Assembly (NCBI RefSeq): GCF_988243305.1
Contig: NZ_OZ547136.1
Reading direction: 5' to 3' (one strand)
Length of the DNA stretch: 64,000 bases
The notes under the pieces were generated by a model. It made no database searches and was not told where the DNA came from. It saw only the letters and a list, made by a program, of their open reading frames with translations. Of the stretch, positions 50 to 27,572 are shown one piece after another. Position 1 is the first letter of the stretch. Every line of letters starts with the position of its first letter. The position numbers were made by a program, and so were the translations under genes.

Positions 50-3000
50 TTAATACAACGTATCCGGTAAACGGAATTGGCTGAACAGACCACCGGTGAA
101 CGGGTTATCTTCGGTATCCACATGCACCCGATAAACCATCGCGCCGCCGTCCACGTTAAAGCGCACGTTAAAGGTGTCACTGGTCACGTTGGTCAACTGG
201 CCCGCGCCGAACAGGCGGAACTGCGCCCACGGTCCACTGAAAGCGATACTGCGCGGTGCTCCACCGCTGGTGCCAACCAGCGTCAGCTTGCTTTCATTGC
301 CTTCACGCATGTTGTTTGGCCAGACCAGATGGGCGGTATAGTTGCGTCCCTGGCTGTAGTCCACTAACTGGCCGTCCAGGTTAAGTACGCTGCGCCGTTT
401 ATTGCCGGAAAGCGACACCGTTTCCACGGCAAATTGTGTGCCCAGCCCGTTCTGCTGGCTGAAGAAGATGTCGCGGATTTTTTGCGCGGTATCCAGTTGT
501 TGTCGGATATCTTCACGGATCAGCACTCTGCCGTCGTCGCCAAAGGTCAGATCGTTTTCAAGGAACAGTCGCAGGTTGTCCTTATAGAAATTGTCCAGAA
601 TGCCATCCGGTTTAAAGAAACGTTCAAACGCATCCAGTGAGGCATCCTGTGAGGCGCGTGGATTAAACGGATAGTTACCGGCAAGCTGTTCGTTGAAGGG
701 TTTCACTACATTGTCGCGCCAGTCCACTTCCATGTAATGAACAGCTTCCACCATCACCACGTGCCAGGCCTGATCCGCCAGCTTGCCCACCCAGCGGTTA
801 AGCGGTGCAGGCAGGGTTTTTGCCATCTGGCGGGTGGCGAAGATTGGATCGCTGCTGTTTTGATCCAGGCGTAGCTGCACTGCTTTCAGCGCCGATTTTC
901 CCGGCACTGGCGAGTTCTGGATCGCCAGCAGGTAACGGTGCAGCTCGGTCAGTTGCTGGTACACGGCCTGTAGCGTACTCGCCTTGTCCTTTTGCTCCTC
1001 CAGTGCGCTGTTTTCCGGTGCGAACTCATGCCCCAGCCGGGACAACAGGCGGTAATCCATCTCATTTATCACCGCTTCCCGCGCCTTATCGTCCAGTTTG
1101 CCGGAGAGCGTCAGCGCGTGTGTATTATCGCGCAGCGCCGTCAGCGCACGCTGGAATGGCTGATCGCCGCTGATAATCTGCTCCAGCGCGTCGGTCAGCG
1201 CCGGCATGGCCTCATAGTCACGGACGTTGAGATTATCCATTCCGGCACGCCATGTAGCGGTATAGTCACTGAGGTACTGTTCAGTGATATGGCGCTGGAT
1301 CTCTTCACGGTCGGCCTCGCTGTAGGCGACGCTTTGCGTCAGGTTCAGCACCCACGAATCCAGCGCGGTCAACTCAACGAGACCGTCGTGTTGTTTGATA
1401 AAATAGCTTTGCAGGCCATAGCGGGTGAGAAACTGCGGGATCACCAGTTTTTCATCATTACCGGCGACGAACACGTTGTCGAAGGTGGGACCAACCTGGT
1501 CGCGCAAATTCAAATCGGCGGGCAACACGCTTAATGCTTTGGTGCGTAGGGTCTGGTAGACACGCTGGTATATCGGCAGTTTGCTCAGTTCATGTTGCGC
1601 ATTAATGACCGGTTTATCATAGGGTGTCCAGCGGCTGATGGCGTCGCTGTCGCCGCTCTGGCGCTGCGCGTGCCAGTCGGTGTGTTCCAGCGCATAGTCC
1701 AGATGTGCCATCAGTTGCGCCTGAATATCACGCTGGCCGTGAAATTCATTGCTCCAGCGCCGCGCCATGTACTGTTTTACCGCCTCGTTGTTGCGCCCAC
1801 TTTTGTCTTCCATCATGCGCACTACGCGCAGCACGGCGAGTTTTTCTTCACTCTCAGGCGGGGCATTGTTCAGATCCCGGATCAGGCCGTTCATTAACGA
1901 GGGGAGATAACGCTGCTCAAGAAGCTGAATGTAGGTTTGTTCCACATATGGCCCTACGCGGACGCCCTGGTACAATCCCATATCCGCCAGAAAACCGTGA
2001 TCGCGGTAATCGCCGTAGGCGAGGGTGGCATCGCGTACCGGGTTGAGTAACGGCAGTTGCAGATTGCCGAATTCATCCTTTCCCTGCGGTGGTGGTACGT
2101 CCATAAAGGCTTTAGCCTGTGCCAGTACGTTAACGCCGGACTGCCAGTTCTGGTTGTAATAATGGTGCCAGCTTCCGACCAGCAATGCCGCCAGTGCCGC
2201 GCCACAGGCGGAAAAGGCGGTCAGCCTGCGCCGGGAGCTGTTCAGCCAGACGCTGTTTTCACCTGCAAGGTTTGGCTCGGCTAGCAGGACTTCCGGGAAG
2301 AGGCGGCGGGTGAAATACGGCGTTGTTTCCACCAGGGGCCAGGTCGCCAGCGAGCTGTTGCCCAGCCCGTACTGGCGGGCGGCGGACTGCGTGAAAATAT
2401 CATCCACCTGGCCGCGCTGTAGCGAGGATGTGAGCCAGACGCCGCGCAGCATCACATCCATATTCTCGCCGTCCAGCAATGCGGCGAGCAGTGAAGTGAC
2501 GATTTCTCCCGTTCCCTGCATCTGACGGGAGAAGCTGAACACGGCGCTGCGTAGCGCAGCACCGGTCTGCACGAGCATCAGGTCTGACAGGGCCAGGTTC
2601 ATCTGTTGTCCCCAGGTCTGCCAGAAGGTGCTCAGCTCGCTGCGCCAGTCATCGTTTTCATGAGCGCGGCGGGTAAACGTGACGCCGAGGATCGCGTCGC
2701 GGTCTTTTTTATCCAGTGAATGGAACAGCGCGGCAAAGCCGGTCAGTAGATCCAGCCGGGTCAGCACCACATAAACGGGCAACCGGCAGTGCAGGCACTG
2801 GCGAATTTCCTGAAGTTGCTGACGCAGATTTTGTACCAGTGCTTCGCGACGGAGTTTATCCGCCGTCAGCAGTTCGGGAAGATCGAGCGTCAGGATCAGA
2901 CCATTGAGCGGCTGGCGTGCGCGCGTTTCCATCAGCCAGCCCAGCCAGTGTTCGCGCAGGCGGCGGTGGAGCAGATCATCCCCGCCGGGGGAGGTCAGTA

Positions 3001-3577
3001 CGCCGTCAACATCGAAAATTACTGCCTGGTTGCCCACTCGCGGTGTGATCAGCGGATGATATTCCACACCCCGGATGCTTTCCGGCATGTAAATAATGTC
3101 AGACGGAAAGCCCTCGCGCAGCAGCGTGCTTTTGCCGCTACCCGCAGGACCAATGACCATATACCACGGCAACTGCCACAGATAACTGCGGTTATCCAGA
3201 TGGCGGCGCAGGCGCAGCAGCCAGTGATCCAAATATTGCTGCTGGTGGTGGAGTTCCACGGTCAACGGATCTTTTTCTTCCTCCCGCTGCTGTTTCTGCT
3301 GTTTTTCCAGCTTTTGCAGACGCTTCATTACCCGCCAGGTGAGCCAGACCAGAGCGATAAGCCCCCAGACGGCGGTCGCCAGCCAGCGGTTTGCCAGCGG
3401 AGCCAGCCAGTGCTGCTCATAGAGCGTCCATTTTGGACCCTGCCACCAGATCCACACCAGCAGAAAAATCCATGCCAGCGCCAGCAGCCAGGCGGCGGAT
3501 ACCTTGAATCGCGGCATCGCTGGCCTGAGCGCAGATCTCAACGAGCTGAACAGTCGGGATGTGGGAAATTTGAACAC
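50..3577 (-). CDS. tssM: Type VI secretion membrane subunit TssM (IcmF family)
   Basis: 1175-aa ORF; N-terminal hydrophobic helices (AWLLALAWIFLLVWIWW); Walker A-like GPAGSGKST; size and position typical of TssM; last gene of the minus-strand T6SS operon. Confidence 0.9.
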   Translation of the reverse strand: MFKFPTSRLFSSLRSALRPAMPRFKVSAAWLLALAWIFLLVWIWWQGPKWTLYEQHWLAPLANRWLATAVWGLIALVWLTWRVMKRLQKLEKQQKQQREEEKDPLTVELHHQQQYLDHWLLRLRRHLDNRSYLWQLPWYMVIGPAGSGKSTLLREGFPSDIIYMPESIRGVEYHPLITPRVGNQAVIFDVDGVLTSPGGDDLLHRRLREHWLGWLMETRARQPLNGLILTLDLPELLTADKLRREALVQNLRQQLQEIRQCLHCRLPVYVVLTRLDLLTGFAALFHSLDKKDRDAILGVTFTRRAHENDDWRSELSTFWQTWGQQMNLALSDLMLVQTGAALRSAVFSFSRQMQGTGEIVTSLLAALLDGENMDVMLRGVWLTSSLQRGQVDDIFTQSAARQYGLGNSSLATWPLVETTPYFTRRLFPEVLLAEPNLAGENSVWLNSSRRRLTAFSACGAALAALLVGSWHHYYNQNWQSGVNVLAQAKAFMDVPPPQGKDEFGNLQLPLLNPVRDATLAYGDYRDHGFLADMGLYQGVRVGPYVEQTYIQLLEQRYLPSLMNGLIRDLNNAPPESEEKLAVLRVVRMMEDKSGRNNEAVKQYMARRWSNEFHGQRDIQAQLMAHLDYALEHTDWHAQRQSGDSDAISRWTPYDKPVINAQHELSKLPIYQRVYQTLRTKALSVLPADLNLRDQVGPTFDNVFVAGNDEKLVIPQFLTRYGLQSYFIKQHDGLVELTALDSWVLNLTQSVAYSEADREEIQRHITEQYLSDYTATWRAGMDNLNVRDYEAMPALTDALEQIISGDQPFQRALTALRDNTHALTLSGKLDDKAREAVINEMDYRLLSRLGHEFAPENSALEEQKDKASTLQAVYQQLTELHRYLLAIQNSPVPGKSALKAVQLRLDQNSSDPIFATRQMAKTLPAPLNRWVGKLADQAWHVVMVEAVHYMEVDWRDNVVKPFNEQLAGNYPFNPRASQDASLDAFERFFKPDGILDNFYKDNLRLFLENDLTFGDDGRVLIREDIRQQLDTAQKIRDIFFSQQNGLGTQFAVETVSLSGNKRRSVLNLDGQLVDYSQGRNYTAHLVWPNNMREGNESKLTLVGTSGGAPRSIAFSGPWAQFRLFGAGQLTNVTSDTFNVRFNVDGGAMVYRVHVDTEDNPFTGGLFSQFRLPDTLY

Positions 3578-3596
3578 AGTAACTCCTTGTTATCTT

Positions 3597-5039
3597 TTAC
3601 TGTTCTGCCGTGAATTTTTGTTCCAGTGCTTTCAGCAGGGAAGGCTCCCATTCGGGTAGCATCATGTGTAAGCCTGTTTTGAAGAGCATCCGGTACTGCT
3701 GTTGTGCAAGCTGAACCATACCGGCTTCTTCCAGTAACTGCGCGCCGAAAAATTGGCGATGAAACTGGTTACGGGGATCACCTTCGGGCAGGTTTTCCAG
3801 ATACCGCAGCGCGGTTTCCAGCCCGTTCTCATCGAAGCACGCCCTGGCCGCCTGTAATTCTTCATCGGTCTGTACAGCTGCTGCGGTTTGGTTGCCTGAG
3901 CCCGATGGTGCCAGCCACTGTTTCGTCTGTTCGGACACAAACGGAGTGCGGTCGTTAAACAACAGGTTGATCAGTGCGGGCAGGCGAGCAAGAAAACTGG
4001 TAACTTCATCACGGATAGCATCCGCCACCTGTATATAACCAAGGCGCAACGCGGTCTGTGCTGAGAGGTAATGGCCGTCCAGCCAGTACGGGGCCAGCAG
4101 CAGGCTTTTTTCCACCTGCTGCCAAAGCGCCATGTCGGCATTGTTCAGTCGCGCCAGATAGTCATCCATCATATCTACAGGGAAAGCAGCCAGAGGGGTC
4201 CGGCCATCGCTTTCTGCCTGCGGGGTACTGGTGATGGTCTGCCACAGCGCATGGCGGCGCAGGCGGTAACCCAGCGGTGACTCCGGCTGACGTTCACAGA
4301 GAATGGCGGCTACCTTCAACAGGGTGTCGCGCCATGCTTTATCATCGTGGCTGTCCACGGTGACCTGCGGGATTGGAGTGGCTGCAACAGGAGGCTGAGC
4401 GGAAACTGTGTGCGGTAACATATCCGGTGCAGATCCGGTCGTGGCCTGCGGCGCAATGGCGGCGGTTCGTGCAGATGATGGCATTTCAGGCGCTACATCA
4501 CGAAACGCGCGCTGAAACAGAGTAAATAAATCGTCTGTCGCCTTAGCCAGCTCAGGCGCGTTGTGCGCCTGCCAGCACAGTGCCAGTTTTGCCAGCTCTC
4601 CCAGCAAAGCATCGCGCTGTGTTGTCACAGCATTCCCGGCAAAGTCATGAATGGCCGACTCAAAGCGTTTTATCACTTGGGTGGCGAAGCGTTTTTTGTG
4701 GGCCATGTTCTGCGGCGCGGCGCATGTCCAGTAGTGCTCTGTATATTGTGTCAGTATCCTGGAGGCCAGCAGAATATCACCGGCATGTTGCAGGGTACGC
4801 AGCAGGTGGGCCAGCAGGCGAAAATCTTTGGTTTCTGAGGCCAGAAGCATCAGGCCCCGGCGCTGAAGTTCGGGGATATCAAGCTGGCTGTGCGCCAGTG
4901 AACCGAGCTTGACGATTTCGCTGTCGATAAACTCCCAGTCTGCATTGCCATCATCAAGCGCGGCGGACAGCTTATCTTCCGGCAGGTTTTCCAGCAGGTG
5001 TGCAAGCCATATATCAGGATTACGTAAGTCCATTGCCAT
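3597..5039 (-). CDS. tssA: Type VI secretion protein TssA (ImpA family)
   Basis: ORF track gives 3597..5105; preferred start is the ATG at 5039 (MAMDLRNPDIW...), which has an AGGAGA Shine-Dalgarno 8 nt upstream on the minus strand and avoids overlap with the upstream gene; about 480 aa. Confidence 0.8.
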   Translation of the reverse strand: MAMDLRNPDIWLAHLLENLPEDKLSAALDDGNADWEFIDSEIVKLGSLAHSQLDIPELQRRGLMLLASETKDFRLLAHLLRTLQHAGDILLASRILTQYTEHYWTCAAPQNMAHKKRFATQVIKRFESAIHDFAGNAVTTQRDALLGELAKLALCWQAHNAPELAKATDDLFTLFQRAFRDVAPEMPSSARTAAIAPQATTGSAPDMLPHTVSAQPPVAATPIPQVTVDSHDDKAWRDTLLKVAAILCERQPESPLGYRLRRHALWQTITSTPQAESDGRTPLAAFPVDMMDDYLARLNNADMALWQQVEKSLLLAPYWLDGHYLSAQTALRLGYIQVADAIRDEVTSFLARLPALINLLFNDRTPFVSEQTKQWLAPSGSGNQTAAAVQTDEELQAARACFDENGLETALRYLENLPEGDPRNQFHRQFFGAQLLEEAGMVQLAQQQYRMLFKTGLHMMLPEWEPSLLKALEQKFTAEQ

Positions 5040-5043
5040 ATTT

Positions 5044-5787
5044 TTATTCTCCTGCCCAGTGGCAGGCGTCGCGTAGCGGCGCAATAACCCGCGCCAGCCC
5101 GTCAATGTTAAAGGTCAGCTTTCCGGCAGCATTGTCTGTGCCGGTATCAACCGTCAGTGTTTTAGCAGCGAATAGTTGCTTAATTTCATCAATACCGGAT
5201 AACCCCCGGCTGGACTCCAGCAGGGTGCCGTTCTCGCGCACAAACCAGTGGCTGCGCAATGCCCGGCTGTCGGCATTCAGGGTGACGGCGATATCATGGA
5301 CATCCAGAGGATGCATCAGCGCCACCTGCATCCGGGTGATATTGTCCACGCAACTGAACATCAGCACCGGGCGCGGCGGAACATGACCGATAGCCGGGGT
5401 GGTTATCACTACCGTCGGGCGTTCACCCGGCACCTGCGTCACCAGCAGCTCTGTGGTGCTGCCCTGGCGGCGTTTTTCCTGCTCTGTGGCGCGGGTCCAG
5501 GCTTCGCCCACAAAGCTGGCTTTGACCAGTGCGGCGTTGCCGAAGCCGGGCTGTTCCGGTGCAAGAATGCGGTCATAACAGTCAAGCCGCTCCAGCGCCG
5601 CAGATTCCCGCCGACAGGACTGCATGGCCTGTAACGTGGCTGTCGCATCCGGCGGGGGCGTGGTGGCGACGGCGACCGCCGCACCGGCCATTGACGATGT
5701 TTCTGCGGGCGCGGCACTGGCGGGTAAGCCCGCCATCAGGCCCGCGATAAACCATCCTGCCTGCCGGAAAACGCGCAACCTGCTCAT
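5044..5787 (-). CDS. T6SS-associated exported protein (VasI/TagO-like); family assignment tentative
   Basis: 247-aa ORF embedded between clpV and tssA; N-terminal signal-peptide-like segment (FIAGLMAGLPASAAPA); 4-nt overlap with the clpV stop suggests translational coupling. Confidence 0.5.
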   Translation of the reverse strand: MSRLRVFRQAGWFIAGLMAGLPASAAPAETSSMAGAAVAVATTPPPDATATLQAMQSCRRESAALERLDCYDRILAPEQPGFGNAALVKASFVGEAWTRATEQEKRRQGSTTELLVTQVPGERPTVVITTPAIGHVPPRPVLMFSCVDNITRMQVALMHPLDVHDIAVTLNADSRALRSHWFVRENGTLLESSRGLSGIDEIKQLFAAKTLTVDTGTDNAAGKLTFNIDGLARVIAPLRDACHWAGE

Positions 5788-8516
5788 AAAACCGTTTCAT
5801 CCTTTGTGACAAACTCGTCGTCCTGAGCATCTTCCACGTCTGCCGTGAACGCGCCGTCTGCCGCCGACAGGCGGATACGGGCAATCGCCGTGTTGGCTGC
5901 CATTTTCTGCAACAGCAGCAGCGAGAGCGGCGGCAGCATGTCGCCATCGATGACCGATTCCAGCATCCTCGCGCCGTTTTCCGCGCGGGTGACGCGGCTC
6001 ATGATTTCGTCCGTCACTTCCGGCTCAATAATCACGTCCGCGCCAAAGCGGCTGCGCAGCACGTTATCCAGACGGGCCAGTTTCCCGGCAATAATGGTGG
6101 CGAGCGTCTCTTTCGACAGCGGCAGGTATGGCACCACTTCCATACGCGCCAGCAGCGCCGGTTTAAAGAAGTCCGCCAGCACCGGATAGAGCACTTCCTG
6201 CATGGTTTCCGGGTCATCGGCGTGTTCGACAATCACCTGATAACCAAGGTTGGAGGTGAGGAAGAAAACGATGTTTTTACAGTCAATCAGGCGGCCTTCG
6301 CCGTCTGCCATCTCGCCCTTGTCGAACGCCTGGTAGAACAGGTTGAGGACATCCGGGTGCGCTTTTTCCACTTCATCGAGCAGCACCACCGAGTAGGGTT
6401 TCTGGCGGATCGCTTCGGTCAGTACGCCGCCTTCGCCATAGCCGACATAGCCCGGAGGGGAGCCAATCAGCCGCGAGACGGTGTGTTTCTCCTGGAACTC
6501 GGACATATTGATGGTGGTCAGGTACTGGCGACCGCCGTAGAGCAGCTCTGCCAGTTGCAGGACGGTTTCGGTTTTACCCACGCCGCTGGGGCCAGCCAGC
6601 AGGAACGCGCCGAGCGGGCGTCCCGGACGGCGCAGGTCGGCGCGTGCGGTCAGCAGGTGTTTATGCAGGCTGGCAATTGCCAGGTCCTGGCCTTTGATGG
6701 TGTCACCAAGCCACTTCGGCAGGTCGGTGATGACCGACATTTCATTCTGCGACAGGCGGTTAAGCGGTACGCCGGTCCATTCGGCAATCACCGCCGCAAT
6801 CTGTTTTTTATCGACGTGCGGGGAAACCAGCAACCGGTCGTTATGCAGGGCGTCCAGTTCGGCAGTGAGTTGTACTAGCTGCTGCACCGGGGAAACTGTT
6901 TCAGCGGTCTCTTCCGGCTGTGTACTGCCCGCATCATCAGCCGGTGCGGTACCGGTATTATCCTGTTCTGACTCTGGCGGCGTATCCACTACGGCATCTG
7001 TGTCCTCTGTCACACCCAGCAATAGCTGGCGCAGCGCGATAATTTCCCGTACCAGCTTCTGCTGCTGGTGCCAGGCCGCTTCCAGTTCATCCAGCGCCGT
7101 CAGCGTTTCATCGTACTGCACCAGCACCTCAGTCATCCGTGAAGTGTCGGTACGCAGCCCGATGCGAAGCTCGCGCTCAAGCTGGCGAATTTCCGCCTCC
7201 TGCTGGTGGCTCAGGGTGGTCAGCGCCGAGATTTGCTTCGGTGGCGATGACAGGTTGATGGCCACACGGGCGCAGGCGGTATCCAGCACATCAATGGCTT
7301 TGTCCGGCAACTGACGCCCGGAGAGATAACGCTCGCTCAGCGTTGCTGCGGCCTGCAAGGCGTCATCATCAATCAGCACGCCGTGAGACTGTTCATAGAC
7401 CGCCGACAAACCGCGCAGAATAATGGTGGCTTCGGTGGCGTTGGGTTCGCTGATCTTCACTAACTGGAAGCGGCGCGACAAAGCTGCATCTTTCTCGAAG
7501 TATTTTTTGTATTCGCTCCAGGTTGTGGCGGCGATGGTTTTCAGTTCGCCACGCGCCAGCGCCGGTTTGAGCAGGTTGGAGATATCCAGCCCGCCCTGCT
7601 GGTTGCCCGCGCCAATCAGAGTATGTGCTTCGTCGATAAACAGAATGACTGGCACCGGAGAGGAAATGACCTCCGCCATCAGCCCCTTGAAGCGTTTTTC
7701 AAACTCACCTTTCACCGACGCACCGGCCTGTAATGCGCCCAGGTCAAGGGTCATAATATCGGTGTTTTTCAGCTTGTCCGGCACCTGGCCTGAGACAATA
7801 CGCAGCGCCAGCCCTTCGATTAAGGCACTTTTACCCACACCCGCTTCACCCACCACCACCGGATTGTTTTTACGACGGCGGCAGAGAATGTCGATCATCA
7901 GGTCGATTTCATGGTCACGGCACAGTACAGGGTCAAGTTTGCCGTTACGGGCATCTTCGGTCATGTTTTTGGCGTAGCGGGCAAGCCCGCTGTCGCCGGT
8001 TTCAGGCGTGCCGGGTGCCTGTCCGCCAACCTGGTTCACGGATTCGGCGGACTCTTTAGTCCATGACGCGAAATCCTGCTGTAACTGGTCGCGGTTTATG
8101 GCCGTCAGCAGACGGGCAGCAGCGGGTGGAATATAGCGCAGCGGTGAATGCAGCAGAGCCAGCAGCAGCACGCCGCCGCGTAGTTCGCTGTGCTGCATCT
8201 GGGCCGAGGCCAGCAGCCATGACTCCTTGAGCCATTCGACCAGCATCGGGGAGAAGCTGGGATAGCCTTCGGCGGAACGTCCGCTGGGATAACTCTCCAC
8301 GGTCAGCGCCTGGCGTAGCTCCTCCGCACTGATGCCTGTGCGTTCGGTAATTACCCTTACGTCGTTGCGCGGGATAGACAGCATCTGCAACAGCACATGG
8401 GCAACGGTGATCTCACTGGCCTGCTGGCTCATACACTCCGAGGCAGCCATTTCCAGCGCCTGTTTTGCAAAGGGGTTAAGCCGCTTTACCAGCGTGGCTA
8501 AATCAATCTGGATCAT
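5784..8516 (-). CDS. clpV: T6SS AAA+ ATPase ClpV (TssH)
   Basis: 910-aa ORF with two AAA+ modules: Walker A GEAGVGKS and GPSGVGKT; Clp N-domain-like N-terminus. Confidence 0.9.
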   Translation of the reverse strand: MIQIDLATLVKRLNPFAKQALEMAASECMSQQASEITVAHVLLQMLSIPRNDVRVITERTGISAEELRQALTVESYPSGRSAEGYPSFSPMLVEWLKESWLLASAQMQHSELRGGVLLLALLHSPLRYIPPAAARLLTAINRDQLQQDFASWTKESAESVNQVGGQAPGTPETGDSGLARYAKNMTEDARNGKLDPVLCRDHEIDLMIDILCRRRKNNPVVVGEAGVGKSALIEGLALRIVSGQVPDKLKNTDIMTLDLGALQAGASVKGEFEKRFKGLMAEVISSPVPVILFIDEAHTLIGAGNQQGGLDISNLLKPALARGELKTIAATTWSEYKKYFEKDAALSRRFQLVKISEPNATEATIILRGLSAVYEQSHGVLIDDDALQAAATLSERYLSGRQLPDKAIDVLDTACARVAINLSSPPKQISALTTLSHQQEAEIRQLERELRIGLRTDTSRMTEVLVQYDETLTALDELEAAWHQQQKLVREIIALRQLLLGVTEDTDAVVDTPPESEQDNTGTAPADDAGSTQPEETAETVSPVQQLVQLTAELDALHNDRLLVSPHVDKKQIAAVIAEWTGVPLNRLSQNEMSVITDLPKWLGDTIKGQDLAIASLHKHLLTARADLRRPGRPLGAFLLAGPSGVGKTETVLQLAELLYGGRQYLTTINMSEFQEKHTVSRLIGSPPGYVGYGEGGVLTEAIRQKPYSVVLLDEVEKAHPDVLNLFYQAFDKGEMADGEGRLIDCKNIVFFLTSNLGYQVIVEHADDPETMQEVLYPVLADFFKPALLARMEVVPYLPLSKETLATIIAGKLARLDNVLRSRFGADVIIEPEVTDEIMSRVTRAENGARMLESVIDGDMLPPLSLLLLQKMAANTAIARIRLSAADGAFTADVEDAQDDEFVTKDETVL

Positions 8517-19213: not shown

Positions 19214-21196
19214 ATGTCCTTAAAAGGTCTGCGCTTTACGCTGGAGGTTGACGGCCAGGAGCCGGACACCTTTGCAGTGGTGAATTTCAGGTTAATCCAG
19301 AACCAGTCATATCCGTTTGTGATGAGTGTGGATGTTGCCAGCGACTCTTTTATGCAGACGGCGGAGATGCTGCTGGAGAAGAAGGCGACACTGACCATCT
19401 GGCAGGGCGCAGTGGCGCAGCGTTATGTCACCGGCGTGGTGGCGGGTTTTGGCATGCAGGAGAATAACGGCTGGCAGATGCGTTATCACCTGCGTATTGA
19501 GCCGCCGTTATGGCGGTGCGGGCTGCGGCAGAACTTCCGTATCTTCCAGCAGCAGGATATCCGGACGATATCGGCCACGTTACTGAACGAGAACGGCGTC
19601 ACGGAGTGGACGCCGCTGTTTTATGAGGACCATCCGGCGCGGGAGTTCTGTGTCCAGTACGGGGAGTCGGACCTGGCGTTTCTGTCCCGGCTGTGGGCGG
19701 AGGAGGGAATTTTCTTCTTTGAGCGGTTTGCGGCGGACAGTCCGGAGCAGAAGCTGACGCTGTGCGACGATGTGGCGGGGCTGTCACAGGCGGGAGAGCT
19801 TCCGTTTAACCCGGACACATCGACAGGAGCGGAGACGGAGTGTGTCAGTATGTTCCGTTATGAGGCGCATGTCCGCCCGTCGTCGGTGCAGAGCCAGGAT
19901 TACACGTTTAAGGTGCCGGACTGGCCGGGGATGTATGAGCAGCAGGGTGAGAACCTGAACGGACAGCTGGCGCAGTATGAGATATTTGATTATCCGGGAA
20001 GGTTCAAGGACGAGCAGCACGGCAAGGATTTCACGCTGTACCAGATGGGCAGCCTGCGCAGTGATGCGGAAAAGGCCACAGGGCAGAGTAATTCACCGAA
20101 GCTGTGGCCGGGAACGCAGTTTACGCTGACGGGGCATCCGCAGAAGATGCTGAACCGTGAATGGCAGGTGGTACAGAGCATACTGTCAGGAAGCCAGCCG
20201 CAGGCGCTGCACGGCAGCCAGGGGAGAGGAACCACGCTGGGAAATCAGTTAGAGGTGATACCGGCAGACCGGACGTGGCGTCCACGGCTGCAAAGCAAAC
20301 CGAAGGTGGACGGGCCACAGAGCGCCATTGTCACCGGGCCTGCGGGAGAGGAAATCTTCTGCGACGAACATGGCCGGGTACGGGTGAAGTTCCACTGGGA
20401 CCGTTATCACGGGATGACGGAGGCGAGTTCATGCTGGGTGCGGGTATCGCAGGCGTGGGCGGGGCCGGGTTTCGGCAATCTGGCGATACCGCGGGTGGGT
20501 CAGGAGGTGATTGTTGATTTCCTGAACGGCGACCCGGACCAGCCGATAATCATGGGACGGACATACCATGAGGACAACCGTTCGCCGGGGAGTCTGCCGG
20601 GGACGAAGACGCAGATGACGATACGGTCGAAGACCTATAAAGGAAGCGGATTTAACGAACTGCGCTTTGAGGACGCCACAGATAAGGAACAGGTCTATAT
20701 TCACGCGCAGAAGAACATGGATACGGAAGTGCTGAATGACCGGACGACGGACGTGAAGCATGACCACACGGAAACCATTGGTAACGACCAGAAGATAACG
20801 GTGGGGTTGGGCCAGACGGTGAATGTGGGGAGCAAAAAGGAAGGTGGTCATGACCAGAAAGTGACGGTAGCGAACGATCAGCATCTCACGATAAAAAATG
20901 ACCGGCACAAGGTTGTAAATAACAACCAGACAAGCAAGGTGACGGGAACTGATACCGAAGAAGTCGTCAAAAAACAGAGTATTAAAATAGGTGATAATTA
21001 CGAACTGAAAGTTGAGCATGGTACAAAAATCATATCTGGGGACAGTATTGAGCTAATTTGTGGGCAGGGAGAGAGCGGGACTTGTTCCATAAAACTGGAG
21101 AAAACAGGAAAGATAATAATACGGGGGACGGAGTTTCTATTTGAGGCTACCGGTCCTGTAGATATTAAAGGAAAAGATATTCATCTGAACGGATAG
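19214..21196 (+). CDS. vgrG: T6SS spike protein VgrG (TssI), no C-terminal effector extension
   Basis: 660 aa; gp27/gp5-like organisation ending in beta-helix repeats; GGGGGG-type ribosome-binding site upstream. Confidence 0.9.
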   Translation: MSLKGLRFTLEVDGQEPDTFAVVNFRLIQNQSYPFVMSVDVASDSFMQTAEMLLEKKATLTIWQGAVAQRYVTGVVAGFGMQENNGWQMRYHLRIEPPLWRCGLRQNFRIFQQQDIRTISATLLNENGVTEWTPLFYEDHPAREFCVQYGESDLAFLSRLWAEEGIFFFERFAADSPEQKLTLCDDVAGLSQAGELPFNPDTSTGAETECVSMFRYEAHVRPSSVQSQDYTFKVPDWPGMYEQQGENLNGQLAQYEIFDYPGRFKDEQHGKDFTLYQMGSLRSDAEKATGQSNSPKLWPGTQFTLTGHPQKMLNREWQVVQSILSGSQPQALHGSQGRGTTLGNQLEVIPADRTWRPRLQSKPKVDGPQSAIVTGPAGEEIFCDEHGRVRVKFHWDRYHGMTEASSCWVRVSQAWAGPGFGNLAIPRVGQEVIVDFLNGDPDQPIIMGRTYHEDNRSPGSLPGTKTQMTIRSKTYKGSGFNELRFEDATDKEQVYIHAQKNMDTEVLNDRTTDVKHDHTETIGNDQKITVGLGQTVNVGSKKEGGHDQKVTVANDQHLTIKNDRHKVVNNNQTSKVTGTDTEEVVKKQSIKIGDNYELKVEHGTKIISGDSIELICGQGESGTCSIKLEKTGKIIIRGTEFLFEATGPVDIKGKDIHLNG

Positions 21197-21302: not shown

Positions 21303-22349
21303 ATGATAGAAATGAAAAATAACACACCATTTCCTTTGTTGTCATTTGAAAAATATGGTCGTTATGGTCTTTTGTTTGATGTTATTGCTATTAAAATGTC
21401 ATTGCGAATTAAAAATGGATTTTATGCTGATCTTGCTGAGTTTCAAAAAGAATTGTCCATGTCTGATGAATACTATGGGGAGTCTGAAACAAGTAGTCTA
21501 AAATCTGAAACAGACTTAGTTCTTTGTAAAAGAAATACAGATATTCACGTGACAGGTAGTGCTCATGCCCCTCCAGGGGATAAGTCTAAGTGGAAGGCTT
21601 GTGTGAGGGTTAATAGTTTTTCTAAAGAACTGAGTTTATCTGGTGTCCGCTACTTACAATATGAGCGAAATCGTTGGCAGATGAGCTTACCAGATAAAAT
21701 TATTAATGTTCCTCTACGCTATGAGCTTGCTTACGGTGGTATTTGGCAACCAGATGGTATGGAGAAATTGGTTTTTTCAGCAAACCCTGTAGGTTGTGGA
21801 TATTATCCTGATATTTCTCAACTTAATACAAGTTGTCAATATAAACTCCCACAAATAACCAGCTCTGCTTTGTCAGAAAACGCTACCATTTTTAATGGGG
21901 AATCTGACTTTTTTCAAGGTGTTGGCCCTGTATCTCGATGGTGGAAAAGTCGCCTCCAGTATGCAGGAACCTACAATGAAGTATGGCGTGAAAAGCGCTA
22001 TCCCTATTTGCCGGATGATTTTGATGAGCGGTTCTACAATAGTGCTCATCCGGATATGATATACACGGGGTTTCTCTCTGGCGATGAAAACATCTCTCTT
22101 GAAGGTTTTTTTAAATTTGAACAGGTTGTTAAGACAAAATTGCCAGGTATACGACCTGTACTTATATTAAAAACCAAGCATAATACATCACATATGTTCT
22201 TACCTGTTGCGGATACAATGGTTATCGATTTAAGTCGACAGGAAATATACCTTACCTGGAGATTAACAATACCTGATTTTTTTGGAATGAAAGAAGGAGT
22301 GCTGAGTTGTATTATTCCTGAATGTATAGGGAAAAAATATTATGGGTAA
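21303..22349 (+). CDS. T6SS adaptor-like protein (DUF2169-type suspected from context and size)
   Basis: 348-aa AT-rich ORF immediately downstream of vgrG; 8-nt overlap with the following PAAR-like gene; the family call rests on genomic context, not on a motif I can verify. Confidence 0.45.
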   Translation: MIEMKNNTPFPLLSFEKYGRYGLLFDVIAIKMSLRIKNGFYADLAEFQKELSMSDEYYGESETSSLKSETDLVLCKRNTDIHVTGSAHAPPGDKSKWKACVRVNSFSKELSLSGVRYLQYERNRWQMSLPDKIINVPLRYELAYGGIWQPDGMEKLVFSANPVGCGYYPDISQLNTSCQYKLPQITSSALSENATIFNGESDFFQGVGPVSRWWKSRLQYAGTYNEVWREKRYPYLPDDFDERFYNSAHPDMIYTGFLSGDENISLEGFFKFEQVVKTKLPGIRPVLILKTKHNTSHMFLPVADTMVIDLSRQEIYLTWRLTIPDFFGMKEGVLSCIIPECIGKKYYG

Positions 22350-23382
22350 CTATCATATCGGGGATGGTGAATGTAGATTTAGAGTCGTGTGTTCTTCACC
22401 AGATGTATGTGAAGTAGGAGGTTACAAGGTTCCTTTTGACAGTTACCAGACTTTAGATAGTGAAAGACAGTACAGTTCAACGGTATGGGCGCGTGGATGC
22501 AGAGCTTTAAATGTTGGTTCAGTGATTGCTGGAACTCAAAGTAATGCCGGTAAAGGTGTCATATCCGGTACATCTCAAGGAACGGGTGACTGTGTTATTT
22601 TAACGGGAAGTCCGACTGTAACAATAGAAGGGAAACCTGTTGCTTATCATGGTTCAGTTGTTGGGATTAATAACCATAACTGCCTTGGTAAATTGTATAC
22701 CAAAATAAAATCACCAATGATTTCTGTCATTGATAAAACTTTTAGTTATGAAAGGACTGCTGAAGTAATACACGATTTACTGCTTCTGAAGGATCTCCTT
22801 TCTGTTGGGAATATTTTGGGCGGAGATATTTCACCTGAGGTTAAAAATGATTTATTTCAAATAAAAGATCCTGACCAATCATGGGGGGAGTTTTTTTCAA
22901 TAAAGAATATCAGAGAATCTCTCAGGAATGGTATTGAAGGAGATAAATCTCAGATCAGAGAATGGTTTGGAGAGAACACACTTACTCAAATGGGCAATGG
23001 AGCAATCACCACTTTACATGGTGTGGCGGATTTAGCCTTAGTTACATTCGATGCTCTGTTAGATACGGCAACGGCAACGGTTGCTTGCCCGATAGGCGAA
23101 GATGGGTTATGTGAACAGGCAAATATAAATTTAAATGAAAAAGAACAGGCTTTATTTAATATTAGTAATTCATTGATAAATGGGCAAGCATGGGATGCAC
23201 TTAAAAAAATGATAATGGATACAAATAATGGTGATCAGATTGCTCTGGAGCATTTTGCCAGCTTTTTATGGGGCTTTATGATACCCGCAAAAATACCAGA
23301 AGAAAATATCTCTGGGAAAGTATTTGTAGAGCCAGTAGTTTTAGAAGGTGGTGCTGGTGGCAATTGGACAGTATTTGATTAG
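22342..23382 (+). CDS. PAAR-like (DUF4150-type) T6SS spike-tip protein with C-terminal extension
   Basis: N-terminus CRFRVVCSSPDVCEVGGYKVPFDSY...GDCVILTGSPTVTIEGKPVAYHGSVV resembles PAAR-like DUF4150 domains; 346 aa; ends at a TAG that is in frame with the next ORF. Confidence 0.65.
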   Translation: MGNYHIGDGECRFRVVCSSPDVCEVGGYKVPFDSYQTLDSERQYSSTVWARGCRALNVGSVIAGTQSNAGKGVISGTSQGTGDCVILTGSPTVTIEGKPVAYHGSVVGINNHNCLGKLYTKIKSPMISVIDKTFSYERTAEVIHDLLLLKDLLSVGNILGGDISPEVKNDLFQIKDPDQSWGEFFSIKNIRESLRNGIEGDKSQIREWFGENTLTQMGNGAITTLHGVADLALVTFDALLDTATATVACPIGEDGLCEQANINLNEKEQALFNISNSLINGQAWDALKKMIMDTNNGDQIALEHFASFLWGFMIPAKIPEENISGKVFVEPVVLEGGAGGNWTVFD

Positions 23383-23409: not shown

Positions 23410-23781
23410 TTGACTTTAACAGGCTGTGGAGCGGCCTGTGGGGAAATGTTGCTTAGGGATAGGTATATTTTTGTCACGCAAAATGTAATTGGAACAGAAT
23501 TAACATCTATGACGTCGCTGGCAAACAAGCTTAATAAATTTGATGTCGGCTGGGAAGGGAATGAAGTGAGCGAATCTAGTTTATATGCCCTCAGTAATAC
23601 TGGTTCATGGGGAGCAATGATGTGGGATTCTGGAAGTAAAGTAGGGCATTGGGTACTTGTTAAGGGTGTTGATGATGCTGGGAATGTGATAATATATGAT
23701 CCATATCAAGGGAGTCGATATCTGATGACTGAACAGGAATTTAAGGAGGTATGGAATGGGCATAGTGTTTACAAACCATAA
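23410..23781 (+). CDS. Papain-fold (C39-like) cysteine peptidase domain, candidate toxin domain; possibly the 3' part of a disrupted PAAR-toxin fusion
   Basis: Candidate catalytic motifs CGAACGEM (Cys), GHWVLVKG (His), IIYDPYQG (Asp); same reading frame as 22342..23382 with only one TAG between them; ORF-track start is a TTG. Confidence 0.5.
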   Translation: MTLTGCGAACGEMLLRDRYIFVTQNVIGTELTSMTSLANKLNKFDVGWEGNEVSESSLYALSNTGSWGAMMWDSGSKVGHWVLVKGVDDAGNVIIYDPYQGSRYLMTEQEFKEVWNGHSVYKP

Positions 23782-24046
23782 TATTGATTTGTTATCGGTT
23801 GAATTTGATGAGATTACAAAAAATTGTAATTACACTTTTAGTGTAGATGGAGAGACGGCTATCTTTACTGCTAGAATATCAATAATAAGAAATATAAAGG
23901 GAATTAAATATAGCGAAGAACTTGATAAATTTATAATGTCAATAATGCCATTGCAGCCTAAAGTATCAAAAATTTTGGGAGGTGTTACTTGGGATTGTAT
24001 TTGTGGTAAGGAAGTTGGATTTCCTGTGAGATTAATTGGTAAGTGA
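23756..24046 (+). CDS. Small protein, candidate cognate immunity protein
   Basis: 96-aa ORF whose ATG overlaps the last 26 nt of the peptidase-domain ORF; no signal peptide; AT-rich. Confidence 0.35.
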   Translation: MGIVFTNHNIDLLSVEFDEITKNCNYTFSVDGETAIFTARISIIRNIKGIKYSEELDKFIMSIMPLQPKVSKILGGVTWDCICGKEVGFPVRLIGK

Positions 24047-24303
24047 AGGGTGGTGAGGTATTTCTATATTTTTTTTCGTGAAAGTCTTTAAAACTAAAAT
24101 TATCTTGTTGGGAGCCCAAGGTGAGATCATAAAACGTATTATTTTATAAATATTGTTATGCAGGGAAAGGTCAAGTAATGCTGCTTTTTTGTACTAAATA
24201 ATTCGCATTTTATGTTCAATAATTGAGGTGTTCCTTATTACCTAAAGCTGTTTTTCATTGCTTATACATGATCAAATACTCATTGCATAATTAAGGGGGC
24301 AAA

Positions 24304-25250
24304 ATGGAACTTAAAAAATTGATGGAACATATTTCTGTTATCCCCGATTACAGGCAAGCCTGGAAAGTGGAACATAAATTGCCAGATATTCTATCTGTTA
24401 ACTATTTGCGCCGTTATTTCTGGTGCATAAGGCTGGGAAGATATAGAGGATTTGGGGAAACACATCTCGATTTTTTGAAGTGATATGGTGATTTTGAAAA
24501 TGGTATTCCTGTTCACGATATCATTGCCAGAGTTGTATCCTGTATCAGTCCTGCAAAATTTTACGAGTGCTTTATTAACTGGATGCGTGACTGTCATTCT
24601 TCAGATGATAAAGACATCATCGCAATTGATGGAAAAACGCTCCGGCACTCTTATGATAAAAGTCGTCAAAAGGGAGCAATTTATGTCATTAAAATCCGTC
24701 TTCATATTGTTTGCATGTCTCTGATGAATTTATTGATTTTACGTTTGAATGGAAAGGGCTGAAGAAATTATGCATGGCAGTCTCATTTCGCTCAATAATA
24801 GCAGAACAAAAGAAAAATCCCGAAATGACGGTCAGATATTATAGCATTTCTGCTGATTTAACCGCAGAGAAGTTCGCCACAGCGAACCGAAATCACTGGC
24901 AAGTGGAGAATAAATTGCACTGGCATCTGGACGTGGTAATGAATAAAGACGACTTCAAAATAAGAAGAGGAAATGCAGCAGAATTATTTTCAGGGATACG
25001 GAAGATCGCTATTAATATTTTAACGAAAGATAAGATAATCAAGGCAGGGGCAAGATGTAAGATGTGAAAAGCAGCTGCGGACAGAGACTACCTCGCGTCA
25101 GTCCTTGCGGGGGCGGGCTTTCGTAATCTTGTTCTGCAAGGGATGATAAAAAGTGCAACTTTATTCCACGCAGCTATTTAGACAGCGTACAGTAAACAAA
25201 CGAAAGTTGTTATTTCAATGGTCAGGGCAAGAGCATGAAGTGTTTACTAC
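24304..25250 (+). mobile_element. Degenerate ISAs1-family (H-repeat) element with disrupted transposase
   Basis: N-terminus [26 protein letters not shown]... and C-terminal fragment ...[27 protein letters not shown]...[17 protein letters not shown]... match the ISAs1/H-repeat transposase from memory; frameshifts and an internal deletion are evident; right boundary approximate. Confidence 0.7.
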
Positions 25251-25295
25251 ACACTATGCTCTTGTCCTGGAGTCAGGTCTTGTCTGGAGGGATAA

Positions 25296-25799
25296 ATGGT
25301 AGATATTGTCGAGGCCGATAAAACGGATATTTATTTCATTCAGGAGAGTGTTTATGGCAAAATCGGGTTGCCAGCTTTGGGTAATACAATAGGACCATCC
25401 GCACAGCAAGTTGTTAAAAAGGTATTCGCTGTCGTTAAAGAACGAGATAAGACACATGCAAAACAGAGATTATTGTTGGAATATAATGGTAACAAACTCT
25501 GGATGAATGCTATTGATGGCAGTGAAGCTATCCTACCAACAGAATTTTCTAAGCGGTACGAACTTTCATTATTCAATACTACTAATTTTGGAGAAGATCC
25601 TTTTCCTGATGTTAATTTATATAATAATATGAAATCAAGTTTTTTTGTAAGGTTTGGTGGAACATCCCATCCCGAGGCTTGGGCTATTTATAATGCAAGT
25701 ACGAAAGAGGTTAAATATATAGAAACTGCAAGAGAAATTGATAAAATATTCAGTGATTTTAACTTGAGTGGTACATTGCCAATTCACATTGGTCAATGA
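25296..25799 (+). CDS. Hypothetical protein (cassette gene 1, unknown function)
   Basis: 167-aa ORF with GGAGGG ribosome-binding site 5-6 nt upstream of the ATG; no signal peptide; AT-rich; flanked by ISAs1 remnants. Confidence 0.4.
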   Translation: MVDIVEADKTDIYFIQESVYGKIGLPALGNTIGPSAQQVVKKVFAVVKERDKTHAKQRLLLEYNGNKLWMNAIDGSEAILPTEFSKRYELSLFNTTNFGEDPFPDVNLYNNMKSSFFVRFGGTSHPEAWAIYNASTKEVKYIETAREIDKIFSDFNLSGTLPIHIGQ

Positions 25800-25864
25800 T
25801 TTTTAAATTGTGTGATTAAATAATTGAACATTAATGATGATTTATAGCATCATTATTCTATAAC

Positions 25865-26377
25865 ATGAATAAACGGATTGAATGTGTTATGTTAAAAATG
25901 AGTTTATACGTAATAATATTGTTATTTTCCTTTCAGATTAGTGCAGCCATTACTAGCAAGGAAAGTGAGGTTGTTTCACCATTATTAATGGATGTTAATT
26001 CTTCACTAACAATGGAAAATATATCTGAATTATCCACATCATCGGAACCATCGCAACAGGGGGTATTTCCTGTAATATGTACTCGACTTCATCCTGGCTC
26101 CGTAATGAAACGCCAGTTATTAACCGGCTGGGGGCCTGTTTTTATAATTGGTGATGATCCTTTTTCTCTGCGCTGGATGAGTGAACATCTGGAGATCCTT
26201 AAATCGCTAAATGCCCTTGGTTTGGTTGTTAATGTTGAATCAGTAGAACGAATGGAGGTATTACAGCAGCGGGCTGATGGGTTATTGTTATTGCCAGTTA
26301 TCTGCGATAATTTCGTGCAAACTCTGCAATTAAATGCTTATCCGGTATTAATCACAGAGATGGAAATATCACAATGA
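25865..26377 (+). CDS. Hypothetical exported protein (cassette gene 2, unknown function)
   Basis: 170-aa ORF; signal-peptide-like segment MSLYVIILLFSFQISAAI; true start may be an internal ATG at 25889 or 25898. Confidence 0.4.
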   Translation: MNKRIECVMLKMSLYVIILLFSFQISAAITSKESEVVSPLLMDVNSSLTMENISELSTSSEPSQQGVFPVICTRLHPGSVMKRQLLTGWGPVFIIGDDPFSLRWMSEHLEILKSLNALGLVVNVESVERMEVLQQRADGLLLLPVICDNFVQTLQLNAYPVLITEMEISQ

Positions 26378-26409
26378 TTAATAACATAATTACTGCAAAT
26401 AATATCGTA

Positions 26410-26612
26410 ATTTTGAAAATGGTAATCCTGTTCACGACACCATAATTAGAGTTATGTCTTGTATCCGTTCAGTATAATTTCACGAATGCTTTATTAACTG
26501 GATGCGAGATTGCCATTCATCAAATGATAAAGACGTCATCGCAATTGATGGAAAAGCGCTTCCACACTCCTATGATAAAAGTGGTCGCAGGAGAGCGGGC
26601 TTTCGTAGTCAT
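26410..26612 (+). mobile_element. Second, shorter ISAs1 (H-repeat) transposase remnant
   Basis: About 180 bp at roughly 85% identity to 24491-24672 (encodes ...FENGNPVHDT...[29 protein letters not shown]...), joined directly to H-repeat 3'-end-like sequence (GGGCTTTCGTA). Confidence 0.6.
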
Positions 26613-26648
26613 ACCCCGACTCTCCCCAGCCCTAAACACAACCCCCAC

Positions 26649-27419
26649 TCACCACAACCTAAACTCATCCGCATCCCGCCATGCCGGAAACTTTTCTCTA
26701 TACTCCCGCAACGCCATCATCGACAGCTCCGCATCAATGCGCGTTGCCTGATGCGCGTCGGCAGTAGCGATAATCTCGCCTTGCGGATTAATCACCCGGC
26801 TGTCACCACGATAATGGCAGCCGTTGCCATCGCTGCCGACGCGATTGCATCCCGCCACATACGCCTGATTCTCAATCGCGCGGGCTGTCAGCAATGCCTG
26901 CCAGTGCAGAGAGCGCGGAGCAGGCCAGTTGGCGACGTACAGGGCGAGGTCATAATCGTTGAGATTGCGCGACCACACCGGAAAACGTAAGTCGTAGCAC
27001 ACCAGCGGCAAAATACGCCAGCCGCGCCATTCCACAATCACTCGCGCATTGCCCGCTTTATAATGTAGATGCTCATCTGCCATGCGGAACAGATGACGCT
27101 TATCATAAAAATGTACCGTGCCGCCCGGCTCAACCAGCAAAAAGCGGTTAACCGAACCAGACTCCGTTTGTAATGCAACACTGCCTGCAATCAGCGCATT
27201 GCACTGCTGCGCTTTGGCTGTCATCCAGTTCACTACGTCATCTTGTGCTAGCGACGAAGCTGCCGCTTCCATGGCAAAGCCGCTGGTAAACATCTCCGGT
27301 AGAACGATCACATCGCGTCCGGTAATACCTTCCAGTTGACGATCAAAATGACGCAGGTTGGCAGGACCATCCATCCACACCAGTGGTTGCTGCAAAAGCG
27401 TAATCTTCAAACCAGGCAC
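26649..27419 (-). CDS. yafV: Omega-amidase (nitrilase-family C-N hydrolase) YafV
   Basis: Protein matches E. coli YafV as recalled; ORF track start 27428; probable start 9 nt downstream. Confidence 0.85.
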
Positions 27420-27572
27420 GGTGTACAACTCCTTTATGCGAAGGGTTTTATAACTTTAACACCTTATCAGGCAGTTGCCTTAGCGCAGAATAAATTGATA
27501 ACAAATGCTGATATTGGAAATATCTGATTTGCAAATTATCGTGTTATCGCCAGGCTTTAGGAGGTTAATAAC

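Follow-up and report, generated by a model that had tools for sequence, protein, structure and literature searches.

Two small genes lie between defective H-repeat copies where the aspV type VI secretion island of Escherichia coli meets yafV

Results

Two H-repeat copies at a type VI secretion island boundary

The window, a 64,000-nucleotide stretch of contig NZ_OZ547136.1 (assembly GCF_988243305.1), is from E. coli, and the region described here is the edge at which the aspV type VI secretion (T6SS) island meets yafV. At this edge two ISAs1/ISEc1 H-repeat copies, A and B, both dead, bracket two small genes, all four lying on the plus strand. The first-pass annotation had proposed that two genes lie between two degenerate ISAs1/H-repeat copies of the same orientation, and this arrangement was borne out by BLASTN, by tblastn with YhhI (the intact ISEc1 transposase of K-12) and by the NCBIfam profile NF033564 (ISAs1 family transposase; cut-off, 70 bits), which together revealed significant similarity both between the copies and to ISAs1 transposases. 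RefSeq already marks copies A and B as ISAs1 pseudogenes. The ISEc1/H-repeat (H-rpt) of the ISAs1 family belongs to the Rhs elements of E. coli, its K-12 copies being yhhI, ydcC and ybfD/ybfL. In Rhs loci, H-repeats lie just downstream of effector/immunity genes (PMC3032704).

Upstream of copy A lie cpe1, encoding a papain-like cysteine protease T6SS effector, and its immunity gene cpi1 (23410-24046, plus strand), named after the RefSeq annotation of the matching stretch in S88 and other genomes; this effector/immunity pair has been described (PMC12136450). Together with VgrG, a DUF2169 protein and a PAAR-like protein, also found upstream of copy A by annotation and genome matches, the Cpe1/Cpi1 pair makes up a polymorphic-toxin setting. 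Beyond copy B, the annotation and the composition profile place the first backbone gene, yafV (2-oxoglutaramate amidase; 26649-27428, minus strand), at which G+C content changes from 30-42% to 50-57%. The segment enclosed between the copies is discrete and low in G+C in the same type of profile.

The spacer between copy A and gene 1 (25137-25295, plus strand), delimited by the right-end alignment, begins with a 50-bp segment (25137-25186) that is absent from HYM1-type genomes, as seen in coverage classes starting at query position 3 or 57. An inverted-repeat scan also identified a hairpin in this spacer (25223-25269), the arms of which are similar to the IS termini. A promoter and terminator scan gave nothing above chance.

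Copy A is a non-autonomous element with both termini

Copy A (24161-25136) is a canonical ISEc1/H-repeat with recognisable termini. It is 90-92% identical to full-length copies, collinear with them and bounded by the same termini, and, like the H-repeats of Rhs loci, it lies just downstream of effector/immunity genes, in this case those of a T6SS. When aligned to the full-length element in locus configuration L002, positions 24160-24691 correspond to IS 1-534 (92%) and 24692-25130 to IS 847-1287 (91%), and a 312-bp internal deletion between 24691 and 24692 costs the transposase ~105 codons (aa ~130-242). In addition, the reading frame changes within 24395-24460 and in-frame stops occur at ~24481 and ~25065, in line with the RefSeq label 'frameshifted; internal stop'. 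It is because of this deletion, the frameshifts and the several stops, by which it differs from intact ISEc1, that copy A is non-autonomous. The transposase remains readily recognisable: tblastn with YhhI matched 24304-24690 (E 1e-63) and 24717-25121 (E 7e-72), and the stop-free translated pieces scored 78 and 97 bits against NF033564.

The ends of copy A were set by aligning nine copies at different loci. The independent copies yhhI, ydcC, L002, L004 and L006-8 begin to align at the left terminal inverted repeat, which a pattern search places at 24161 in copy A (24161-24174, plus strand; CAGGGAAAGGTCAA, canonical form CAGGGAAAGATCAC), and the right-end alignment locates the right terminal inverted repeat at 25123-25136 (plus strand; GTAATCTTGTTCTG, canonical form GTAATCTTGCCCTG). 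Counted by hand, left and right termini pair at 12/14 positions in canonical copies and at only 8/14 in copy A. No target-site duplication flanks copy A in the end alignment, nor is one visible there at the intact yhhI and ydcC copies. Thus, the frameshifts and internal deletion proposed from the first reading of this copy stand, whereas the element runs from 24161 to 25136 and not from 24304 to 25250.

Copy B is a fragment fixed beside yafV

Copy B (26397-26618, by BLASTN, tblastn and end alignment) adjoins yafV and is a fragment, not an element, its sole terminus being a degenerate right one. Its internal segment (26397-26597; 196 bp, IS ~326-521), delimited by alignments to canonical ISEc1 and by tblastn, is 82-83% identical to canonical ISEc1 and lacks the 5' 325 bp and the left end of the IS. 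This interior is fused by a 743-bp deletion, across the 8-bp microhomology GGAGAGCG (26590-26597), to the element's final 29 bp (26590-26618), which carry the degenerate right terminus CGTAGTCATACCCCG. The ~225 bp retained are only 82-85% identical to any canonical copy, the best match elsewhere in E. coli reaching ~85%, and the divergence is uniform, with identities of 95/115 in the left part and 69/81 in the right part. In tblastn, YhhI matched 26388-26597 (E 2e-30), a transposase fragment of 70 codons with two stops, and a 40-aa stop-free piece matched NF033564 (E 2e-9).

BLASTN of 26350-26700 against 24200-25300 returned one direct match, 26402-26586 with 24483-24667 (154/185 identical, 83%, no gaps, E 1e-53), and a repeat scan of the same pair aligned 26397-26596 with 24478-24677 (82%; spacing, 1919 bp), the latter being the direct-repeat arm inside copy A (plus strand). 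A 16-nt end sequence in copy B, GCGGGCTTTCGTAGTC (26595-26610), matches copy A at 25113-25128 in 15/16 positions. The first-pass annotation had described a shorter second copy that repeats ~180 bp at ~85% identity and is joined to an H-repeat end: the repeat is real and the end alignment identifies a genuine right end, and the copy is to be placed at ~26397-26618 in lieu of 26410-26612.

The right end of copy B and its yafV junction are common to five configurations of the locus, L002 (with the full-length IS), K-12 yafF, L004, L005 and L006-8, and the degenerate terminus together with the yafV-flank junction is identical in every configuration examined. The K-12 pseudogene yafF (b4503) accordingly represents the same insertion, with an identical degenerate right terminus and yafV junction; it retains the last ~290 bp (IS 1003 to the end), whereas copy B in the window retains IS 326-521 and the last 29 bp, and neither the T6SS island nor the cassette, both present in the window, survives in K-12. 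Copy B is the leftover of an old ISAs1-family insertion that became fixed beside yafV, and it marks the island boundary.

No recognisable toxin/immunity pair between the copies

Gene 2 (25865-26377, plus strand; 170 aa, or 162 aa from the RefSeq start at ~25889) has a signal-peptide-like N-terminus and is an integrating conjugative element family protein (PFL_4695/DUF2859): like the PFL_4695 proteins of integrating conjugative elements (ICEs), it matches the whole TIGR03765 domain well above the cut-off (120.6 bits; cut-off, 59.75), and it also matches PF11072 (E 2.4e-28). Unlike them, it stands isolated at an island edge, where the annotation over ±9 kb shows T6SS and backbone genes only and neither an integrase nor a relaxase nor type IV secretion genes, and it is at most a conjugative-element remnant. 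A word-indexed search for relatives of gene 2 outside E. coli gave only Escherichia sequences.

Gene 1 (25296-25799, plus strand; 167 aa) could not be assigned to a family by profile, structure or homologue searches. There was no significant match in Pfam (with the single sequence or a 23-sequence alignment), NCBIfam, PADLOC, PHROGs or a PDB profile search, and domain searches recognised neither a known toxin domain nor a PAAR or Rhs core sequence. An AF2 model built with the alignment reached pLDDT 84.7 (the single-sequence model, at pLDDT 37, was useless), and all Foldseek matches of this model in AFDB50 were uncharacterised relatives; likewise, every source name among the remote homologues is 'hypothetical protein'. 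Family members occur in Escherichia, Serratia, Morganella, Yersinia, Pantoea, Citrobacter and Burkholderia. Seven genomic contexts of remote homologues, which are ~23-41% identical to gene 1, were examined. An orphan Hcp precedes one of these homologues, TssB/TssC another, and a third lies beside DUF4123 and PAAR genes; the others are two-gene modules. Gene 1 is a member of a small uncharacterised family whose distant members adjoin T6SS genes (Hcp, TssB/TssC, DUF4123/PAAR). Where translated, the partner of these homologues is hydrophobic and, judged by eye, seems to be a membrane protein with several passes; its length is ~145 aa, or 92 aa in the orphan-Hcp context. The partner in the window is the DUF2859 protein and not this one; the E. 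coli version of gene 1 also has an internal deletion of ~33 residues. Between two diverged alleles, both genes of the cassette show purifying selection (dN/dS 0.28 and 0.32), which hints at a function.

The enclosed genes are thus not a recognisable toxin/immunity pair. The first reading had linked the copies to polymorphic-toxin loci and to an orphan toxin/immunity cassette; the setting fits, and the cassette itself does not, with gene 2 being a DUF2859 protein and gene 1 having no family match. Orphan Rhs-CT/immunity modules bordered by H-repeats resemble this cassette in closing a vgrG/PAAR effector array on its distal side, next to an H-repeat, and differ from it in that gene 1 has neither an Rhs core fragment nor a PAAR or known toxin domain and gene 2 is not of a known immunity family.

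The cassette occupies a single locus

In a survey of 5,426 complete E. coli genomes, the arrangement of copy A, cassette and copy B was found in 541, and the 1.26-kb cassette occupies a single chromosomal locus in ~10% of complete genomes. The cassette itself is present in 758 genomes, at a median of one place per genome, and 760 of the 763 places are chromosomal; the junction of PFL_4695, copy B and yafV occurs in 743 genomes. The arrangement is stable in 297 genomes, UTI89, S88, APEC O1 and IHE3034 among them. H-repeats as such occupy a median of 5-6 places per genome.

Two IS copies of one family around a discrete low-G+C segment could suggest a composite transposon, with the copies as its ends and the two genes as its cargo. 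The copies are direct and not inverted, however, and copy B has no left end and a degenerate right terminus, while copy A is short of ~105 transposase codons; no target-site duplication accompanies copy A (as noted above, intact yhhI and ydcC show none either), and essentially all 758 carriers have the cassette at one chromosomal locus, which lies beside yafV in the 743 junction-bearing genomes. We consider this reading extremely improbable and reject it on account of the missing left end of copy B, the defects of copy A, the single cassette locus and the lack of a target-site duplication. Since copy B lacks its left end and copy A part of its transposase, the copies are not mobile, and the cassette is not moved by them.

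Three sampled mini H-repeats beside yafV are mosaics

A synthetic hybrid query joining the left part of copy A to the right part of copy B gave an unbroken match along its entire length (100%), adjoining yafV, in many genomes. The matching 'mini H-repeat' consists of the left end and IS 1-521, followed by the last 29 bp, and stands beside yafV in 210/5,426 genomes. Three minis (L006, L007 and L008), all of which carry the 521/1265 deletion junction of copy B, were examined base by base at 22 fixed differences between canonical and B-type sequence. In L006 and L008 the sites up to and including 434 are canonical and those from 480 onwards B-type, whereas L007 is canonical to 399 (with one site unique to L007) and B-type from 410; these differing switch points imply two independent breakpoints. 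In the minis the left part is 99% canonical (114/115) and the right part 96% B-type (78/81), and none of the 16 fixed B-specific differences in the left 115 bp of copy B is present in any of the three. Given its uniform divergence from canonical ISEc1 and a best match of only ~85% elsewhere in E. coli, copy B is probably the parental type. Because the minis have the architecture predicted for a recombinant and the three examined are mosaic in sequence, we conclude that recombination in the A/B repeat is real.

The identical 521/1265 junction of minis and copy B points to one deletion event, and this, together with the lack of a parent/product pair, would also suit the converse order, in which a mini H-repeat is ancestral and an insertion of gene 1 and PFL_4695 cut off its first 325 bp to leave copy B, with no deletion by A/B recombination. 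Had copy B descended from a mini by truncation, its left part would be canonical, yet copy B is uniformly ~83-85% identical to canonical ISEc1, and the minis change from canonical to B-type sequence, left to right, at differing switch points. The 16 B-specific differences of copy B that all three minis lack argue strongly against this order, and we regard it as very unlikely.

Searches for a cassette and a mini in the same flanking background found neither combination. The window's Cpe1/Cpi1 flank joined to a mini, as a hybrid query of A-left and B-right, was not found in the 5,426 genomes, the best coverage (86%) being the cassette-bearing form, and the upstream flanks of the L008 or L006 minis were joined to the cassette in 0 genomes at a coverage of at least 80%; there is therefore no direct parent/product strain pair. 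The initial proposal that the direct repeats could mediate deletion or exchange of the cassette thus holds as regards recombination within the repeat (210 genomes with a single mini, three mosaics, two breakpoints) and does not extend to a same-background deletion product or a before/after pair of strains. As no simple deletion product occurs in the same background, exchange with imported DNA is as likely as intrachromosomal deletion.

Discussion

We consider it probable that, taken as a whole, the locus is best explained by an old, fixed copy B, a defective copy A and a non-mobile cassette, with the copies providing portable homology for recombination between the island and yafV. IS copies are established as portable homology for the deletion or replacement of genomic-island modules. 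As in such systems, direct IS repeats surround a dispensable segment and single-copy recombinants occur in related genomes; the repeat here differs in being short (~190 bp) and 17% diverged, and in having no same-background deletion product. Copies A and B would serve solely as this ~190 bp of homology. RecA-type recombination of copy B with an island-side canonical H-repeat would join the island directly to yafV, with loss of the intervening DNA, and the product of a crossover between A-type and B-type copies would be a mini H-repeat. The crossover may take place within one chromosome, as a deletion, or the right-hand crossover of imported DNA may fall inside the repeat, as a module exchange. 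Such events must be rare, because ~190 bp at 83% identity is a poor RecA substrate. The anatomy of the locus, the family of the copies, the conserved boundary, the genome counts and the mosaicism of the three minis are observed; the direction of the events and their mechanism we infer.

The mosaics could also have arisen by gene conversion, with the intervening DNA retained. On this reading, patchy conversion among the 5-6 H-repeats of a genome would have occurred without crossover, and presence or absence of the cassette would reflect unrelated island replacements. The number of H-repeats per genome is in keeping with it, as are upstream modules of minis that are unlike those of cassette genomes and a patchiness of B alleles, L005_B being canonical-like at some sites at which copy B of the window is not. 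By contrast, the canonical tract of the minis is unbroken from the switch point to an intact left terminus and island DNA, as a crossover gives, and conversion requires a B-type left half, none of which was seen anywhere. We therefore judge conversion without crossover unlikely and favour recombination through portable homology.

Edge remodelling by recombination between such copies is ordinary, already annotated genome decay, and with H-repeats at Rhs/T6SS loci, the aspV T6SS island and the yafF remnant already known, little here is new. The only lead of some value at the locus is the uncharacterised, T6SS-linked family of gene 1. It might represent an undescribed family of small T6SS cargo effectors, with the ~145-aa membrane partner possibly acting as immunity protein and the E. 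coli version having recruited a domesticated PFL_4695/DUF2859 partner, a proposal that we hold to be speculative and rather improbable. If gene 1 were a T6SS effector, the H-repeat remnants would bracket an orphan effector/immunity module, as the first-pass annotation had guessed. As for the locus itself, copy B can be read as an ancient immobile boundary marker common to all island variants, and recombination between canonical H-repeats and copy B helps to account for the swapping or trimming of the island's effector end from one lineage to another.

Two decayed H-repeats in direct orientation flank the cassette

Pairwise alignment identified a direct repeat between 24483-24667 and 26402-26586 (154/185 identical, E 1e-53), which in a repeat search extended to 200 nt at 82% with a spacing of 1919. 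Both arms are ISAs1 sequence: the K-12 protein YhhI, an intact ISEc1 transposase, aligns with 24304-24690, 24717-25121 and 26388-26597, and stop-free pieces match NCBIfam NF033564, with the upstream copy (copy A) above the cut-off. These data confirm that two degenerate ISAs1 (H-repeat) copies lie in direct orientation on either side of gene 1 and gene 2, as the first-pass annotation had proposed, with small corrections to the positions, copy A being 24161-25136.

The element termini were fixed by aligning nine H-repeat copies (yhhI, ydcC, that of L002, two in L004, those of L006-8, and the window), giving left CAGGGAAAGATCAC... and right ...GTAATCTTGCCCTG ends with inverted-repeat pairing at 12/14. 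Copy A keeps both termini. It lacks IS 535-846 (numbered on the full-length element in L002) through a 312-bp deletion between 24691 and 24692, and it carries a frame change inside 24395-24460 plus in-frame stops. No target-site duplication is visible at copy A, nor at yhhI or ydcC. The downstream copy (copy B) starts abruptly 20-25 bp past the gene 2 stop codon, at IS ~326, runs to ~521 and then passes, across the microhomology GGAGAGCG, into the final 29 bp of the IS, where its right terminus is degenerate (CGTAGTCATACCCCG). The earlier structural reading proved right; the feature, which is already annotated, represents ordinary decay of IS copies at an island edge that was known before.

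The window and S88-type genomes share a 50-bp segment directly 3' of the copy A right terminus (25137-25186) that is missing from HYM1-type genomes, whose matches begin at 25187. A group II intron (ltrA reverse transcriptase/maturase) interrupts an extra H-repeat that HYM1 itself (L004, NZ_CP141765.1) has at 2774-5948, shortly before the position of copy A. Gene 1 is closely preceded by a 47-bp hairpin (25223-25269; arms CAGGGCAAGAGCAT... and ...ATGCTCTTGTCCTG). Since its outer 10 bases agree with the H-repeat terminus CAGGGCAAGA, it may represent two back-to-back remnants of IS ends, or a mini-element.

Copy B is an old marker of the island boundary

The degenerate right terminus and its junction with the yafV flank are common to all configurations fetched. 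These comprise a full-length H-repeat following VgrG-Rhs-immunity genes in L002 (NZ_AP022482.1, 6002-7293); K-12 MG1655 (L003), where the pseudogene yafF (6100-6378) comprises the terminal ~290 bp of the resident H-repeat, from IS 1003 onwards, and where nothing of the T6SS island is kept besides the yafT, ykfM and yafU remnants; HYM1, with an intact ISEc1 at the copy A position; L005, a non-T6SS island in which IS630 truncates gene 2; and three genomes (L006, L007 and L008) with a single 'mini' H-repeat. Copy B is uniformly ~83-85% identical to canonical ISEc1, and the closest other E. coli H-repeat reaches only ~85%; copy B is therefore an old, immobile remnant and an old boundary marker. 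The yafV-adjacent 'full-length' H-repeat of Rhs-type islands (L002) looks hybrid: its body is canonical, but its right terminus is of the degenerate resident type, pointing to an earlier crossover close to that end.

On the other side, copy A is immediately preceded by two genes (23410-24046) named cpe1/cpi1 in some RefSeq genomes, and these in turn by genes for VgrG (19214-21196), a DUF2169 protein (21303-22349) and a PAAR-like protein (22342-23382). The T6SS effector Cpe1 is a papain-like cysteine protease acting on GyrB/ParE, and Cpi1 provides immunity against it (PMC12136450).

Among 5,426 complete genomes, the copy A-cassette-copy B arrangement (at least 80% of 24000-26800) was present in 541, and the junction of the gene 2 3'-end, copy B and yafV in 743, the excess being mostly L005-type truncated cassettes. 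Cpe1-Cpi1-copy A occurred in 297, including UTI89, S88, APEC O1, IHE3034 and ATCC 11775, and the mini H-repeat in 210. The median genome has one cassette place, and 760/763 places are chromosomal.

Three mini H-repeats are mosaics of canonical and copy B sequence

We modelled the product of a crossover between copies A and B by fusing 24160-24575 to 26495-26800. Used as a query, this synthetic sequence gave one-piece matches over 100% of its length in many genomes, adjoining yafV. The mini H-repeats of L006, L007 and L008 each comprise IS 1-521, with the left terminus intact, followed by a junction identical to the 521/1265 junction of copy B. Across IS 326-521, where 22 fixed differences separate canonical from copy B sequences, the first 18 sites of L006 and L008, up to 434, are canonical and the remaining 4, starting at 480, are B-type. 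L007 is canonical as far as 399, except at one private site, and B-type from 410 onwards. In the left part, the minis agree with canonical sequence at 114/115 positions and with copy B at 96/115; in the right part, the figures are 66/81 and 78/81, respectively. Even divergence along copy B, together with the mosaic minis, indicates that copy B is a parent and that the minis are recombinants, in which two or more breakpoints arose independently.

The proposal that the direct repeats mediate deletion or exchange of the cassette thereby gains comparative support. None of the 5,426 genomes searched has the Cpe1/Cpi1 flank next to a mini, and none has the flank upstream of the L008 or the L006 mini next to the cassette, so the search yielded no genomes that directly pair the state before the event with the state after it. 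A simple deletion within the chromosome and the import of DNA that replaced the entire distal island, with its right-hand crossover in the H-repeat, are equally plausible, and gene conversion may also have produced the mosaic minis.

The cassette encodes a candidate T6SS-linked protein

Gene 2 (25865/25889-26377) encodes a PFL_4695/TIGR03765/DUF2859 protein of full length whose N-terminus resembles a signal peptide; the local annotation has no further conjugative-element genes nearby. Searches of Pfam, NCBIfam, PADLOC and PHROGs gave no match for gene 1 (25296-25799), and no PDB sequence matched it significantly. A word-indexed search of 5.8 billion proteins returned relatives from E. coli only, including a 68%-identical allele at the same locus in L011 (OU349849.1), where it has a DUF2859 partner of its own that is 74.5% identical. 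At L011 7960-10903 the entire cassette is present as a diverged allele, with 76% identity at the nucleotide level, followed by a full-length canonical ISEc1. After this ISEc1, ~390 bp with an 87-aa ORF replaces the right end of copy B, and the cassette is preceded by Mn-catalase, DUF892 and KGG genes. Between the window and L011 alleles, dN/dS values of 0.28 (gene 1) and 0.32 (gene 2) indicate that both genes have evolved under constraint.

An exhaustive search identified 31 gene 1 relatives, the full-length remote ones being ~150-217 aa and roughly 23-41% identical; E. coli members are without ~33 residues found in other family members. We inspected the contexts of remote relatives at loci L012, L013, L016, L017, L018 and L019. 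One relative directly follows an orphan Hcp, one follows TssB/TssC within a T6SS cluster, one has DUF4123 and PAAR genes as neighbours, and four form two-gene modules. By eye, the translated partners are hydrophobic, apparently multi-pass membrane proteins of ~145 aa; the partner beside the orphan Hcp, on the opposite strand, is a 92-aa protein of the same appearance. The AF2 model of gene 1 built from the family alignment is confident (high pLDDT, 84.7), and its AFDB50 matches are uncharacterised proteins only, from Enterobacterales and Burkholderia. A role of gene 1 as a toxin and of the DUF2859 protein as its immunity protein is unproven, and so is the label of orphan toxin/immunity cassette. 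Gene 1 is a candidate for membership in a T6SS-linked family that has yet to be described.
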